Assembly (NCBI GenBank): GCA_963800405.1
Contig: CAWDBW010000071.1
Span: forward strand, 557-64,556
Direction: 5' to 3'
DNA from: an uncultured Acidobacteriota bacterium
Lineage (GTDB): Bacteria > Acidobacteriota > Terriglobia > Terriglobales > Acidobacteriaceae
DNA: 64,000 bases
Below, in pieces: positions 10,941-47,372 of this stretch. A program made the translations under genes and the position numbers. Each line of letters starts with the position of its first letter. Position 1 is the first letter of the stretch. The notes under the pieces were generated by a model, which did no database searches, was not told where the DNA came from, and saw only the letters and a program-made list of their open reading frames with translations.

Positions 10941-12155
10941 CTAATACTCTGGCGTGATCGCCTTGGCTTCCTCCAGCGTGAGCCGCCGCTTGTTTTTGTA
11001 GGACAGGTTCGACATGTGCACCGCGATGGCCGACCGGTAGCCGATTTCCGGCGGAGCGTTCGGAACACCGCGGCTGCGGACGCAATCGATCCAGTTGGCC
11101 ATGTGATCCTGATCCTTGGTCTTGCCGCGTGTGGCGTCTCCGCTGGGACGGTTCGTCTTCTCGGGCCAGTATTGCAGCGGCTCTTCGAAGTGATGTTCGA
11201 ACGTTCCGTCGCTGCCCAGAATGCGGTCGCCCAGTTCGTAATGCTTGTTGCTGAAAGTGGACTGCCAAGTGACAACAATCTCGCCGGGAAAATCGAGCGT
11301 CACTGCGATCGTATCCGGCACTTCGCGGCCGTCCTTTTCTGAGAACACGCCGCCCGACATGTAGGCTGCCGAGGGCAGCGGCAAATCGAGCGCGCCCATG
11401 ATCCAGGCGATCTGGTGCACCATGTTCTCGGCGCAGTTGCCGCCGGCGAATTCCCAGAACAGCCGCCAGTTGATGAGCTTGTAGGGATCAAAAGGGATTT
11501 CCGGCCGGCCATTGAGAAACGCGCTCCAGTTCACATTCTGCGCGGTGCAGTCCGACGGAACCTGCCGCACCCACTGGCCCTTGCCGTGAGGAGTGTTGCG
11601 GCCCATCCAGGATTCGACCTGAGTGACTTTGCCGATCCATCCGTCTTTGATCATCTGTTTCGCGTCGACCAAGGCGCCGGAACTTTGATGCTGCAATCCG
11701 ATTTGAATGACGCGGTTGGAAGCCTTGGCCGCAGCCAGACATTTATCCGCTTCCGGAATCGACCAGGTCATGGTCTTCTCGGAATAGAGATCTTTGCCGG
11801 CGGCCAGCGTGTCCAGAAAATGCCGGCAGTGAATGTGCAGCGGACTGGCCACGATGACCGCGTCGATATCCTTCATGTCGAGCAGGCGGCGGTGATCGTC
11901 GAAGGTCTGAATGCCGGGCACTCGGCCTTTCGCCTGGTCGCGACGGCGGCTGTAGACGTCCGCCATCGCCACGACCTCCGTGCCGCGGACGTTGAGAATT
12001 TCTCCCAGCAAATCGTTGCCGCGATCGCCCACCCCGATCATGCCCACGCGTACTCGATCATTCGCGCCCAGCACTTTCGACGTTGGATAGGCCAGTACCG
12101 CTGCGGTGCCCAGCGCGGCCTGCTTCAGAAATGTACGCCTACTTTGATCGGTCAT
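10941..12155 (-). CDS. Tat-exported Gfo/Idh/MocA-family NAD(P)-dependent oxidoreductase
   Basis: Tat signal MTDQSRRTFLKQAALGTAAVLA. Rossmann motif VRVGMIGVGDRGN. 404 aa. Confidence 0.85.
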   Translation of the reverse strand: MTDQSRRTFLKQAALGTAAVLAYPTSKVLGANDRVRVGMIGVGDRGNDLLGEILNVRGTEVVAMADVYSRRRDQAKGRVPGIQTFDDHRRLLDMKDIDAVIVASPLHIHCRHFLDTLAAGKDLYSEKTMTWSIPEADKCLAAAKASNRVIQIGLQHQSSGALVDAKQMIKDGWIGKVTQVESWMGRNTPHGKGQWVRQVPSDCTAQNVNWSAFLNGRPEIPFDPYKLINWRLFWEFAGGNCAENMVHQIAWIMGALDLPLPSAAYMSGGVFSEKDGREVPDTIAVTLDFPGEIVVTWQSTFSNKHYELGDRILGSDGTFEHHFEEPLQYWPEKTNRPSGDATRGKTKDQDHMANWIDCVRSRGVPNAPPEIGYRSAIAVHMSNLSYKNKRRLTLEEAKAITPEY

Positions 12156-12253: not shown

Positions 12254-13249
12254 TTACAAAGCGTCCGCGTCTTGCAGGAGTTTCTTCATGCCTGCCCAGC
12301 TCTTGCGCGAGCATTCCTCGGGCGTGCCGCCGCCGCTCCAGTGCGTCTCCAGGCTCACCGCATAGTGGTAGCCATCGCGCTTGAGCGCTTTATACTGGCC
12401 GGCCCAATCGATGAAGCCCCCGCCCATCGGCGCCCAATCAGTTCCCTTACCTTTCTTGACAGCATCTTTGCAGTGGCAATGGCCAATGCGTTCCTTAGGG
12501 AGAAGATTGTAGCCATCCGGATACGGCGTTTCGCCGGCAGCAGCGGCGTTGCCCGGATCCCAATTCAGCATGAGCGCAGGCGACTGCACCGCGCTCAAGA
12601 CTTTAACGGCTTCCGCAGCCGTTGCCGTATTGCACGCGGACTCGTTTTCGAGCACCAGGATGACGCCCTTCTTCTCCGCCTTGGCGGCCGCTTCCCGCAG
12701 TTTGTCGTTGATGGCAGCGCGATACGGTGCCTGGTCTTCGAGTCTCCAGAAATCGAAGCAGCGCACGCGATCGGTCTGGAAAGCTTTGGCCAGATCCATG
12801 GCGCGGTCGAGGACTTCATCCTGCTGCTGCAGCTTAAAGTCCGCCCCGAAGCTCTTGGCCTCGCTGAATTTCGATTTCGGCGCGCCCGGCCAGTCGACCT
12901 TGAACAGCGGGCTGGCGATGTCGGTAACTTTGAGCTGATATTTTTCGAGAATGCGGCGCGCCTCCGCCACCTCCTGGTCGTCGAGCTTGAGGATGTTCTT
13001 CTTCCACATGCCGCGCAGTTCGATCCAGCCCATGCCAAACTCCTTCGACGCGACTTCACAGGCGTGGCCGAAATCCTGGGAAATCTCATCGTTGATGACC
13101 GATACCCGGAACGGCGAGCCTGCATCGGCCGAGCCGAAGCGGGAGGTCCGGGAAAACGCGGAGGTCGAAGTAAGCGAAGATGCGGCCTTGGCGGCCGTTA
13201 AGGCGACCATTCCCGCGAGAAATTCGCGGCGGGCAAACTGGATGGGCAT
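12254..13249 (-). CDS. Tat-exported sugar phosphate isomerase/epimerase (xylose-isomerase-like TIM barrel)
   Basis: Tat signal MPIQFARREFLAGMVALTAAKA. Body pattern ...GWIELRG...VILVLENE...HCHCKD typical of AP-endonuclease-2/XylA-like TIM barrels. Confidence 0.78.
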   Translation of the reverse strand: MPIQFARREFLAGMVALTAAKAASSLTSTSAFSRTSRFGSADAGSPFRVSVINDEISQDFGHACEVASKEFGMGWIELRGMWKKNILKLDDQEVAEARRILEKYQLKVTDIASPLFKVDWPGAPKSKFSEAKSFGADFKLQQQDEVLDRAMDLAKAFQTDRVRCFDFWRLEDQAPYRAAINDKLREAAAKAEKKGVILVLENESACNTATAAEAVKVLSAVQSPALMLNWDPGNAAAAGETPYPDGYNLLPKERIGHCHCKDAVKKGKGTDWAPMGGGFIDWAGQYKALKRDGYHYAVSLETHWSGGGTPEECSRKSWAGMKKLLQDADAL

Positions 13250-13409
13250 GACCTGCTCCTTGGGAGACGTCGGTTACGGCCGCGAAAACGGCGGAAGGGA
13301 CAATCTACCACCATCGAAACTCAAGCGGTAGAAGAGCAAGGAGAAAGTTATGCGGAGCCTGCGGCAGGATAGGAAGTGAAGAGCCCCTGAGACAGGAAAG
13401 CTGAGCGCA

Positions 13410-13445
13410 AAACAAAACGCCCCAGACTCGATTTGAGTCCTGGGA
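13410..13445 (-). terminator. Intrinsic terminator of RNA unit 1
   Basis: Minus strand: UCCCAGGACUC-AAAUC-GAGUCUGGGG followed by CGUUUUGUUUU. Confidence 0.7.
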
Positions 13446-13544
13446 CGTCTGTTGATCAGCCCTCCCCCAAGTGCTGCTCAAGAACACTCTAACTCTACCC
13501 TTGAACCCGGTAAATGGCTCGGTCGTGCTATAGGTGGCACGAAC
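13410..13544 (-). ncRNA. Unit 1 of a tandemly duplicated ~135-nt structured-RNA candidate ending in an intrinsic terminator (family not recognised; sRNA or cis-acting conditional terminator)
   Basis: Near-identical to unit 2 at a 165-nt offset. Contains a 5' hairpin CGUGC-N8-GCACG. Internal blocks are conserved between copies. Ends with a terminator stem plus CGUUUUGUUUU. Confidence 0.45.
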
Positions 13545-13573
13545 GGCGCATGCCAGGGGAAATTCTTGCCCAC

Positions 13574-13610
13574 AAAACAAAACGCCCCAGACTCGATTAG
13601 AGTCTCGGGA
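13574..13610 (-). terminator. Intrinsic terminator of RNA unit 2
   Basis: Minus strand: CCCGAGACUC-UAAUC-GAGUCUGGGG followed by CGUUUUGUUUUG. Confidence 0.65.
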
Positions 13611-13709
13611 CGTCTGTTGATCAGCCCTCCCCCAAGTGCTGCTCAAGAACACTCTAACTCTACCCCTGAACCCGGTAAATGGCTCCCCCGTGCCATATGT
13701 AGCACGAAG
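13574..13709 (-). ncRNA. Unit 2 (upstream copy) of the tandem structured-RNA candidate
   Basis: Same architecture as unit 1. Differences are confined to the 5' hairpin, the 3 nt after it, one G/A further downstream and two terminator positions. Confidence 0.45.
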
Positions 13710-13822
13710 GTGTGACCCGCCATAATCCATTGATAATACAGGTCCTTAATCAAGTTTCGCGACGAGTCCCATTGGCCAGAAAGGCCTGCAAACCCCAGTG
13801 CGCCCTCTGCGCCCCGGTTCCC

Positions 13823-15265
13823 TTAGCTGATACCCACCTTATAACGTGGCCACTGCGAACGGATCGCGTTGTGGTCGATCACTGGCTCGCCTTCGCACTC
13901 CACTTCGAAGACGGTTGTGGGACGGTCCGGCGCCTGCGTGGGCAATCCCGTCAGACGCAGCGAAAACTCGTCCTGCGCAAACGTTACGCTCTGGCCGGTC
14001 TTCAACAGACGCACGGATTTCACTTTGGTTTTCAGACCGCCAATGGCAACCACGGTGGGCGGTTGAAAAAACGGCAGCCACTCCGCCGCCGGAGAATTCC
14101 CCGGCCAGTACTGCTGGTGGATATACAGCGTGTTCCCGCGGCGAGTGTAGTTGGCATTCGAGTTCCAGCTATATGATCCGCGTTCTGTGCCGTAGATCGA
14201 CTTGCCGTTGCCGTCGAGCCACTGGCCAACCGTTTCCAGAATCTCCACCGATTCGGCGGGTACCGATCCGTCGGGTTTGGGACCAATATTGAGCAGATAA
14301 TTTCCGCCGCCCTGCGCACAAGTGGCCAAGTTACTCACGATAGTCTTGGCGGTTTTCCATCCATCGTCGCCGCGATTAAAACCCCAGCTGTCGTTCATGG
14401 TCATACAAGTTTCCCAGGCGCGTCCCTTTTCGGCCGCCGAGATCTCCTGTTCGGGCGTGGAGAAATCTCCGTCCAGACCATTGCGGTTGTTCACGATGAT
14501 CTCGGGCTGGAGTTCGAAGACCATCTTGTTCATGCGCTCCGACTCCCACTGTTCCGCGGTCAGCGGCCAGTCGACGTCATACCAGAGCACATCGATTTTT
14601 CCGTAGTTGGTCATCAACTCGCGGATCAATCCATGCGTGTAGGCCACAAAACGCTGGCGCGCCGCTTCGTCTGTCTTGCAGCGCATGCCATCGGGATGGT
14701 GCCAGTCCATCAGCGAATAGTAGAAGCCCACGCGCAGCCCCTCGGCCCGCGCCGCGTCCACAAATTCGCGAACCAGATCCCGGCCCGGCCCCTGGCGCGG
14801 AGCACAGTAATCGGTGAGCTTAGTGTCGAAATGACAGAAGCCCTCGTGATGCTTGGTGGTCATCACCATATATTTCTGGCCGGCGCGGCGCGCCAGCCGG
14901 GCCCACTCCCGCGCCGCGTTCGGCTTCGGCTGAAAATGTTTTGCCAGCAACTCGTACTGCGGAATCGGAATTCCCTCCACCTCCATCGCCCATTCATGCT
15001 GGCCGACCACGCTGTAGAGTCCCCAGTGGATGAACATGCCGAATTTGGCTTCATGCCACCAAGCCATGCGTTGCTCGCGCGTGGCCGCTTCCTTGGTCGC
15101 TTCCGCAGAAGGGCGTGCAGTCGGGCTCTGCTGTTCGGCGCCGGCGATGCTCGCGGCATTCGCAGCGTGCGCCGAAGCTGCCATCGCGCCGGCACCAGCT
15201 ATTCCTGCGCCGGCAATTCCAAGATTCTTCAGAAACAACCGCCGGGAAACCGTATCCGTTCTCAT
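13823..15265 (-). CDS. Tat-exported alpha-L-fucosidase, GH29
   Basis: Tat signal RRLFLKNLGIAGAG. GH29 N-terminal block EAKFGMFIHWGLYSVVGQHEWAM...KYMVMTTKHHEGFCHFDT. Confidence 0.9.
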   Translation of the reverse strand: MRTDTVSRRLFLKNLGIAGAGIAGAGAMAASAHAANAASIAGAEQQSPTARPSAEATKEAATREQRMAWWHEAKFGMFIHWGLYSVVGQHEWAMEVEGIPIPQYELLAKHFQPKPNAAREWARLARRAGQKYMVMTTKHHEGFCHFDTKLTDYCAPRQGPGRDLVREFVDAARAEGLRVGFYYSLMDWHHPDGMRCKTDEAARQRFVAYTHGLIRELMTNYGKIDVLWYDVDWPLTAEQWESERMNKMVFELQPEIIVNNRNGLDGDFSTPEQEISAAEKGRAWETCMTMNDSWGFNRGDDGWKTAKTIVSNLATCAQGGGNYLLNIGPKPDGSVPAESVEILETVGQWLDGNGKSIYGTERGSYSWNSNANYTRRGNTLYIHQQYWPGNSPAAEWLPFFQPPTVVAIGGLKTKVKSVRLLKTGQSVTFAQDEFSLRLTGLPTQAPDRPTTVFEVECEGEPVIDHNAIRSQWPRYKVGIS

Positions 15266-47296: not shown

Positions 47297-47341
47297 TGGA
47301 GCCGACGAGCGGACTTGAACCGCTGACCTGCCGATTACGAA
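47297..47341. repeat. attR core (within tRNA-Thr)
   Basis: Identical to 30843-30887. Confidence 0.9.
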
Positions 47342-47372
47342 TCGGCTGCTCTACCAACTGAGCTACGTCGGC
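47297..47372 (-). tRNA. tRNA-Thr (anticodon CGU), CCA encoded
   Basis: GCCGACG-TA-GCTC-AGTTGGTA-GAGC-A-GCCGA-TTCGTAA-TCGGC-AGGTC-AGCGG-TTCAAGT-CCGCT-CGTCGGC-T-CCA. All four stems are fully paired. Confidence 0.95.

Follow-up and report, generated by a model that had tools for sequence, protein, structure and literature searches.

Acidobacteria are among the most abundant bacteria of soil, and to our knowledge almost no regulatory RNAs have been described in them. A 2022 survey listed four annotated families of small RNAs (sRNAs) for Acidobacteria (PMC9029176). Tandem sibling genes for trans-acting sRNAs have been described elsewhere, including PrrF1/PrrF2 of Pseudomonas aeruginosa, OmrA/OmrB of Escherichia coli and LhrC1-4 of Listeria (PMC4211561; for LhrC, PMC5880928), and a further multi-copy family, CcsR1-4 (the 'cuckoo' RNA family), is found in Rhodobacter sphaeroides (PMC8034643). 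Here we analyzed a locus of an uncultured Acidobacteriota bacterium (GenBank assembly GCA_963800405.1, contig CAWDBW010000071.1, positions 557 to 64,556). This whole stretch of 64,000 nucleotides (nt) is called the window, and all positions are counted from its first letter. The locus contains two near-identical units of ~140 nt, each of which is probably a self-contained gene for a trans-acting sRNA of ~71 nt, so that the window would hold a tandem pair from a multi-copy (sibling) family.

The repeat consisted of two direct 136-nt copies (13408-13543 and 13573-13708) that were 93% identical, with 165 nt from start to start. Tandem Repeats Finder (TRF) gave a period of 165, 1.8 copies, 92% matches and no indels. 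The sense strand of both copies was the minus strand, on which a GC-rich hairpin followed by CGTTTTGTTTT closed each copy, with CGUUUUGUUUU directly after the hairpin. An earlier sequence-only reading of this DNA had described near-identical tandem units with this period and strand, conserved internal blocks in both copies, and a stem-loop with a T-rich tail at the end of each; all three were recovered, and the blocks that it quoted occurred exactly twice in the 64-kb window and not once in 100 dinucleotide-preserving shuffles. A GH29 fucosidase gene and a xylose-isomerase-like TIM-barrel gene are 573 nt apart here, and the repeat took up the greater part of this interval; the co-directional fucosidase and TIM-barrel/oxidoreductase genes flanked it as described. 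The 141-amino-acid (aa) open reading frame (ORF) called here (13305-13730), which the same reading had set aside as a mirror of the DNA repeat, had no Pfam match, and 1-nt indels between homologous units leave it unsupported as a coding sequence.

Orthologues of the TIM-barrel protein led to 80 loci in metagenome-assembled genomes (MAGs) of Ca. Sulfotelmatobacter and Acidobacteriaceae, and the unit was found upstream of the TIM-barrel gene in 55 of them (one copy in 33 loci, two in 9, three in 10 and four in 3). The 94 units aligned were not chosen by the presence of the 26-nt block GAGCAGCACTTGGGGGAGGGCTGATC, which was invariant in 94/94. In CGTTTTGTTTT, 10 of 11 positions were invariant and the remaining one was at least 90% conserved; GCCATT and most of GCAC were also nearly fully invariant. 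Between GCCATTTACC and the invariant block, the sequence was free and the length almost fixed. With the 94-unit profile, nhmmer detected 240 units when run on the window together with 173 related loci, and anchoring on the invariant block gave 199 distinct units, to which the counts below refer unless another number is given.

Units were found across acidobacterial MAGs, and conservation beyond the locus, on which the sequence-only reading had made its proposal depend, was confirmed. An exact scan of genome_contigs for the 26-mer yielded at least 119 further stretches. Among the matches listed, nearly all carriers bore the label Acidobacteriaceae, Acidobacteriota or Ca. Sulfotelmatobacter, the few exceptions being assigned to Ca. 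Aquilonibacter, Eisenbacteria or Dormiibacterota. Chromosome OY970205.1 is an example of a complete genome with the family. The 26-mer had no match in 2.9 million viral contigs, and a phage origin of the unit was rejected accordingly. A 19-mer of the 5' half (GAGCCATTTACCGGGTTCA) had a single match in genome_contigs, a chance match to one unrelated gammaproteobacterial ORF. Copy A of the window was nearest to copy 1 of locus L002 (95%) and copy B to copy 2 of the same locus (92.6%); A and B are therefore orthologous to the two L002 copies, and the duplication in the window is old and maintained. The TIM-barrel locus, with a protein 73-85% identical to that of the window, was also present on contigs whose MAGs were labelled Binatus, Eisenbacteria, Dormiibacterota, Binatia, Verrucomicrobiia or Aquilonibacter (L009, L021, L024, L039, L041 and L058). 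The probable cause is that contigs were binned wrongly or that bins of the SMAG set bear wrong labels.

Conservation in the 5' half was concentrated at promoter-like positions. The hexamer TAnnnT stood 6-7 nt before the invariant block in 197/199 units (mean elsewhere, 1.5/199), and TTnACn stood 16-18 nt upstream of this -10 element in 153/199, with TTTACC in 104/199 and TTTACG in 33/199. Frequent -10 hexamers were TAGAGT, TAGTCT, TAGATT, TATGCT, TAATCT and TACATT. Information content peaked at T-13, A-12 and T-8 and had a second peak at GCCATTTACC (-40 to -31), with almost none between; the 16-18-nt spacer was near-random in sequence, constant in length and devoid of conserved pairing. Array copies other than the first also kept the -35 hexamer and, in 48/48 cases, TAnnnT, though each sits after the terminator of the preceding copy. 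With hexamers 16-18 nt apart and the invariant block 6-7 nt past the -10, within the 6-9 nt expected for a transcript start, the geometry of the 5' half is that of a predicted sigma-70 promoter, and the predicted start (+1) coincides with the base that opens the invariant block. We read the unit as a probable sRNA gene because its conserved positions follow this layout, with the invariant block at the expected +1.

The two units of the window would each be a complete candidate sRNA gene comprising operator, promoter, sRNA and terminator, with a sigma-70-type promoter made up of -35 TTTACC, a 17-nt spacer and -10 TAGAGT. Unit A extends over 13574-13713 on the minus strand (nhmmer match 13572-13713 to the 94-unit profile; repeat copy 13573-13708). 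Its third half-site, GAGCCA, and its -35 hexamer (13679-13674), both placed by conservation in the 199 units, occupy 13674-13685, and its -10 hexamer, placed by TAnnnT conservation and the information peaks, occupies 13651-13656. Unit B, 165 nt downstream of A, matched the profile at 13405-13546 on the minus strand (repeat copy 13408-13543), with its -35 hexamer at 13509-13514 and its -10 hexamer at 13486-13491, both by sequence and by conservation in the 199 units. Transcripts would begin at or beside the G of GAGCAGCAC, at 13644 in A and 13479 in B.

Predicted sRNA A is 71 nt long (13574-13644, minus strand), with its 5' end set by the promoter geometry, and it consists of the invariant 5' stem-loop (13644-13619), the linker AACAGA (13618-13613), the terminator hairpin (13612-13583) and the U-tract UUUUGUUUU (13582-13574). 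Predicted sRNA B, also 71 nt (13409-13479, minus strand), has the same parts (stem-loop, 13479-13454; linker; terminator hairpin, 13447-13418; U-tract, 13417-13409), and its differences from sRNA A were confined to the terminator stem and loop. Both were predicted to fold into two hairpins (A, -32.7 kcal/mol, z = -4.2; B, -32.8 kcal/mol, z = -5.1). The first is the invariant stem-loop GA-G-CAGC-A-CUU-GGGG-GAG-G-GCUG-A-UC, which would expose the G-rich, Shine-Dalgarno-like loop region GGGGGAGG; the second, after a short A-rich linker (variants AACAGA, AACATA, AACAAA and GACATA), would be a strong Rho-independent terminator. In the 94 units, the terminator helix was 97% paired, with compensatory CG<->UA and AU<->GC exchanges, and its inner stem covaried (e.g., GACTC/GAGTC to GGTCC/GGACT). 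Termination is predicted at this combination of GC-rich hairpin, U-tract and compensated pairing; a generic terminator scan missed the unit terminators, the stem of which is bulged. A small peptide as the product was rejected: a plausible start codon with an ORF is lacking in the sRNA, and the units vary in length by 1 nt. The proposal of two sRNA genes in the sequence-only reading is thus supported, though the anatomy differs: the RNA, probably ~71 nt (invariant stem-loop plus terminator), would be about half of the ~135 nt supposed.

The remainder of the supposed RNA, namely a 5' CGUGC..GCACG hairpin, GAGCCAUUUACC and a variable stretch, behaved as promoter and operator DNA. Across the 94 units, changes in the core of the 5' hairpin, including the core of its left arm, were never compensated, and the helix that minimum-free-energy folding placed in the spacer was 66% paired, with uncompensated changes. 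The outer pairs of the spacer and 5' helices showed few two-sided changes, beside many unpaired cells. Covariation over the whole unit was within the range of shuffles (82/500 reached the same level), and folding 70 distinct units singly gave no shared hairpin between GCCAUUU and the invariant block. The 5' hairpin, CGTGCCA-N4-TGGCACG, is better read as a DNA palindrome because changes in its core are uncompensated, and as such it is a candidate transcription-factor operator.

In unit A, this palindrome is CGTGCTA-CATA-TGGCACG (13689-13706, minus strand), centred about -54; in unit B, it is CGTGCCA-CCTA-TAGCACG (13524-13541, minus strand), at the same position within the unit. An upstream array of half-sites, GTGCCA / TGGCAC / GnGCCA with a period of ~10 nt, would form the candidate operator. 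GCAC of the right half-site was present in 185/199 units, and the right half AT[G/A]GCAC and the third half-site GnGCCA, which abuts the -35, were kept in every genomic context; the left arm was often lost and persisted only in certain contexts. The shared operator-like motif should lead to the regulator of the family. A sigma-54 promoter at TGGCAC, which would call for TGGCAC-N5-TTGC spacing and an invariant GG, was considered and rejected. The G23-G33 spacing is 10 instead of 11 (GCC one position early), the first G of GG is replaced by A in about half of the units, and such a promoter would leave the conserved TAnnnT without explanation. The half-sites also resemble those of the CIRCE/HrcA operator (TAGCAC/GTGCTA), and one context lies near dnaK, but their spacing does not fit what we take to be that of CIRCE.

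Several points weigh against a promoter-driven sRNA gene. The hexamers match the E. coli sigma-70 consensus at only 8/12 positions, a consensus that may not be that of Acidobacteria, and a generic promoter scan missed the unit promoters, whose 8/12 matches were under its threshold. The 5' end is taken from promoter geometry, the RNA being a prediction from sequence. Absolute invariance over 26 nt exceeds the typical length of an sRNA seed. The 5' untranslated region (UTR) of the TIM-barrel gene was not supported as a target (mean duplex energy -21.4 vs. -20.3 +/- 1.4 for shuffled sRNAs; 45/200 as good). Finally, a co-directional gene often ends close by, its stop codon only 8-56 nt ahead of the unit; upstream mRNAs therefore likely also end at the unit terminators, and longer read-through or 3'-UTR forms likely coexist.

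These short distances also speak for an alternative in which the whole ~135-140-nt unit is transcribed from further upstream, as a longer sRNA or a processed 3'-UTR element, and the promoter-like positions are RNA nucleotides or a processing site. Such distances leave no room for a separate terminator, so that mRNAs run into the unit; the 5' palindrome could form an RNA hairpin; and sRNAs derived from 3' UTRs are a known class. However, arrays and loci with a divergent upstream gene have no co-directional gene upstream, and later array copies follow a terminator yet keep TTTACC-N17-TAnnnT. The spacer, constant in length, free in sequence and without conserved pairing, is also at odds with an RNA element, and many units that keep the -35 and -10 no longer have the far 5' arm. 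We regard this alternative as unlikely, and the short sRNA with its own promoter as the probable product.

The unit was not restricted to the TIM-barrel locus. No reliance was placed on context counts that involve ORFs of <200 aa, since the gene caller, which is based on GC content at third codon positions (GC3), mis-calls some short ORFs. Upstream of the array, the gene varied by genome and was, for example, a fucosidase, a large outer-membrane beta-barrel (TonB-dependent-receptor-like), a GH42-like gene or a divergent receiver domain. The last was a stand-alone receiver domain of ~143 aa (PF00072; cluster C2), divergent from the array and 190-365 nt upstream of it, at 17 loci (L025, L030, L034, L042, L047, L051 and L053 among them); the window has no such gene. 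At other syntenic loci, the unit was usually single. It was found between a NAPRTase gene and an FG-GAP/ASPIC gene at 13 loci or more, and at 12 or more it was flanked by genes for a sugar MFS transporter, on its upstream side, and an SH3/YfiO-like protein. It also stood downstream of a conserved kinase-like gene of ~900 aa (a Ser/Thr kinase with an extended membrane part, judging by eye), 13-16 nt past a cupin gene with dnaK (by eye) further downstream, and, at three loci, convergent to an SRAP gene ~30 nt away. In the kinase-like context, the unit was co-directional in L083, L085, L118, L135, L148 and L150 and on the opposite strand (convergent) in L142. Two or more separate unit loci were present in at least 17 assemblies, and assembly CAWFUU had at least six units at four loci. 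These genomes thus carried two or more homologous candidate genes, with promoter-like and terminator elements in every copy. Most likely, the units form an undescribed sRNA family whose core is identical across many peat-soil Acidobacteria and which occupies several places per genome.

The same spread, with several loci per genome and one to four tandem copies, could suggest a dispersed non-autonomous repeat, such as a miniature inverted-repeat transposable element (MITE) or a repetitive extragenic palindromic (REP)-like sequence, or else a portable terminator/insulator cassette that was spread and amplified without an RNA product of its own. The unit often lies right after genes where a terminator would be useful. 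However, the repeat search of 12800-14300 in the window reported no inverted-repeat pair with a length of at least 12 nt, which leaves no long terminal inverted repeats of the MITE/REP kind there. The heterogeneous neighbours, the synteny across species and this lack of an inverted-repeat pair argue against a mobile repeat; the synteny points to vertical inheritance rather than mobility, and the orthology of A and B with the L002 copies and the empty search of viral contigs also speak against such a repeat. A plain terminator, moreover, needs no invariant 26-nt block preceded by promoter-like hexamers at fixed spacing. The sequence-only reading had named a dispersed repeat as the finding that would overturn it: the unit is indeed dispersed over many loci in the literal sense, but these loci are syntenic across species and the anatomy of the unit is gene-like. 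A repeat or cassette of this kind is accordingly improbable.

If the units are sRNA genes, as we consider probable, the best guess is that the RNA acts by base-pairing or protein binding through its invariant G-rich stem-loop. Invariance over 26 nt and an exposed G-rich, Shine-Dalgarno-like loop suggest pairing with pyrimidine-rich targets or binding of a conserved protein. We infer that transcription starts at the predicted position, that the RNA acts in trans and that it is controlled through the operator. By analogy with sibling sRNAs, the tandem pair would most likely raise sRNA dosage or diversify regulation. Pairing with the 3' tail of 16S rRNA was predicted at -16.2 kcal/mol (shuffles, -10.7 +/- 2.9; 42/1000 as good), and opening of the hairpin costs 8.9; once this cost is counted, the complementarity is marginally above chance and suggestive at best. 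A more far-reaching idea, to which we give very little credence, is that the stem-loop UUGGGGGAGGGCUGAUC mimics a Shine-Dalgarno sequence on the 16S 3' end GAUCACCUCC, or sequesters a global GGA-binding translational regulator, and that the multi-copy sRNA is a dosage-tunable brake on translation initiation. On that idea, the 26 nt would never vary because the partner itself cannot change, and the sRNA, if the idea is true, would be a global brake in slow-growing peat Acidobacteria.

Units in the MFS-transporter context (L084, L092, L098, L099 and L160 among them) form a sub-family in which the promoter spacer, ...CCTTCTCC..., is rich in pyrimidines and complements the G-rich sRNA loop; in these units a perfect GCAC-N4-GTGC inverted repeat adjoined the -35. 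If read-through from the upstream gene includes this spacer, the transcripts could sequester the sRNA loop.

The TIM-barrel gene had a promoter of its own. An extended -10 motif, TGGTAGATT (13302-13310, minus strand), lies outside the repeat, past the array, with 52 nt between it and the ATG at 13249, and is decisive for how the repeat is interpreted. A motif of this TGnTAGATT type was present in 47/57 distinct orthologous leaders, always downstream of the array, and the distance from the motif to the end of the start codon was mostly 42-55 nt. In locus L035 (MAG SbA1), the unit (L035:2537-2681) is inverted and divergent from the TIM-barrel gene, the promoter motif of which stays intact; co-directionality with that gene is therefore unnecessary for the unit. 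INDEPENDENCE from the downstream TIM-barrel gene is seen in that gene's own promoter past the array, in the inverted unit of L035 and in the differing upstream neighbours. GCTACC was usually found ~20 nt upstream of the extended -10 of the TIM-barrel gene, and its TAGATT resembles the -10 of the sRNA units; the two kinds of promoter may have a sigma factor or their origin in common. Many TIM-barrel leaders (L007, L020, L026, L029 and L056 among them; in the window, about 13262-13290, minus strand) showed by eye a short hairpin directly ahead of the Shine-Dalgarno sequence, with seemingly covarying arms (CCGTC/GACGG, CCAT/ATGG, CCTT/AAGG and CGTG/CACG), which may be a small conserved 5'-UTR structure.

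These results bear on the other proposal of the sequence-only reading, that of tandem conditional terminators, riboswitch- or attenuator-like, that gate read-through. As considered here, this would be a riboswitch or a protein- or tRNA-dependent attenuator, each ~135-nt unit being a sensor with its expression platform and the two together controlling, one after the other, whether transcription from the fucosidase gene continues into the TIM-barrel and oxidoreductase genes. Tandem riboswitches and tandem T-box leaders are known, the units lie between co-directional genes and end in strong terminators, folding of the whole ~135-nt units is better than that of shuffles (z = -3.0 and -4.3), and the array is directly upstream of the TIM-barrel gene in the 55 loci counted above. 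Against this, a cmscan of Rfam 15 over 12500-14700 with permissive filters gave no match at E <= 10, in agreement with the remark in that reading that no known riboswitch fitted; Acido-1 and Acido-Lenti-1 are presumably part of that library. At Rfam gathering thresholds, the whole window yielded nothing but one tRNA gene (47300-47372, minus strand; RF00005, 72.7 bits). Covariation was present in the terminator helix only, with none in a sensor; the conserved upstream positions fit -35/-10 geometry instead; and the unit was not placed as a 5' leader with a promoter upstream. The neighbours formed no coherent regulon: they were unrelated, whether assigned by Pfam (TIM-barrel isomerase-like, NAPRTase, FG-GAP/ASPIC, sugar MFS, SH3/YfiO-like, cupin and SRAP) or by eye (kinase-like and DnaK), some were convergent, and this heterogeneity rules out a regulon with a single ligand. 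The context of the units, including the TIM-barrel promoter past the array and the L035 inversion, has already largely refuted conditional termination, which we consider very improbable. The riboswitch reading is hereby corrected, attractive as it was, and the case illustrates that a repeat which looks structured can in large part consist of promoter DNA.

All genes around the array are on the minus strand. The TIM-barrel gene (12254-13249; Pfam PF01261, E = 4.6e-31) is the downstream neighbour and the syntenic anchor of the array; its product begins MPIQFARREFLAGMVA, judged by eye to be a Tat-like signal. Further downstream are a GFO/IDH/MocA oxidoreductase gene (10941-12155) and a gene for a ROK protein. 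The upstream neighbour is the GH29 alpha-L-fucosidase gene (13823-15265; Pfam PF01120, E = 3.2e-88), which was not kept at this place in other genomes, and beyond it lies a gene whose product is a large beta-barrel protein of the outer membrane that matched TonB-dependent receptors weakly.

Full-text literature searches found no description of this element, and its resemblance to known RNAs is one of arrangement. Like PrrF, OmrA/OmrB and LhrC, the units are near-identical short candidate sRNA genes placed head-to-tail, and each seems to possess a separate promoter and a Rho-independent terminator; more copies are present elsewhere in the genome, and the operator-like motif that they have in common upstream suggests that a single transcription factor regulates them together. 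Unlike those systems, with which it has no sequence or Rfam relation, the family is found in Acidobacteriota, forms arrays of up to four copies, contains a block of 26 absolutely invariant nucleotides and is so far known as sequence. The exposed motif is G-rich and Shine-Dalgarno-like, in contrast to the LhrC motifs, which are C-rich and anti-Shine-Dalgarno-like.

A multi-copy family with a long, absolutely conserved core and a dosage-type redundancy also recalls Qrr1-5 of Vibrio, in which the conserved core is about 32 nt. The upstream TGGCAC superficially resembles the sigma-54 promoters of the qrr genes, but the GG-to-GC spacing is 1 nt short, the first G is only ~50% conserved and the conserved hexamers fit sigma-70; moreover, the Qrr genes are dispersed and not tandem. 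The tandem riboswitches and T-box leaders share with this locus repeated units, each closed by an intrinsic terminator and placed ahead of a metabolic gene, but here helix support is found only in the terminator, the downstream gene has its own promoter past the array, and orientation and neighbours vary. In CcsR1-4, as in the present arrays, up to four homologous small RNAs lie in direct tandem beside a protein-coding gene and form stem-loops with a conserved loop motif. The CcsR RNAs, however, are co-transcribed with the upstream ccaF1, are processed from one precursor and have C-rich anti-Shine-Dalgarno loops, whereas each unit here has its own promoter-like and terminator elements and a G-rich loop. 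The predicted sRNA family is new, without Rfam or sequence relation to Qrr or CcsR any more than to PrrF, OmrA/OmrB and LhrC, and it is of a kind already known, that of sibling sRNAs. It is a clade-wide, multi-copy and precisely delimited candidate family, with a predicted promoter, a predicted +1, a terminator and an invariant 26-nt core.

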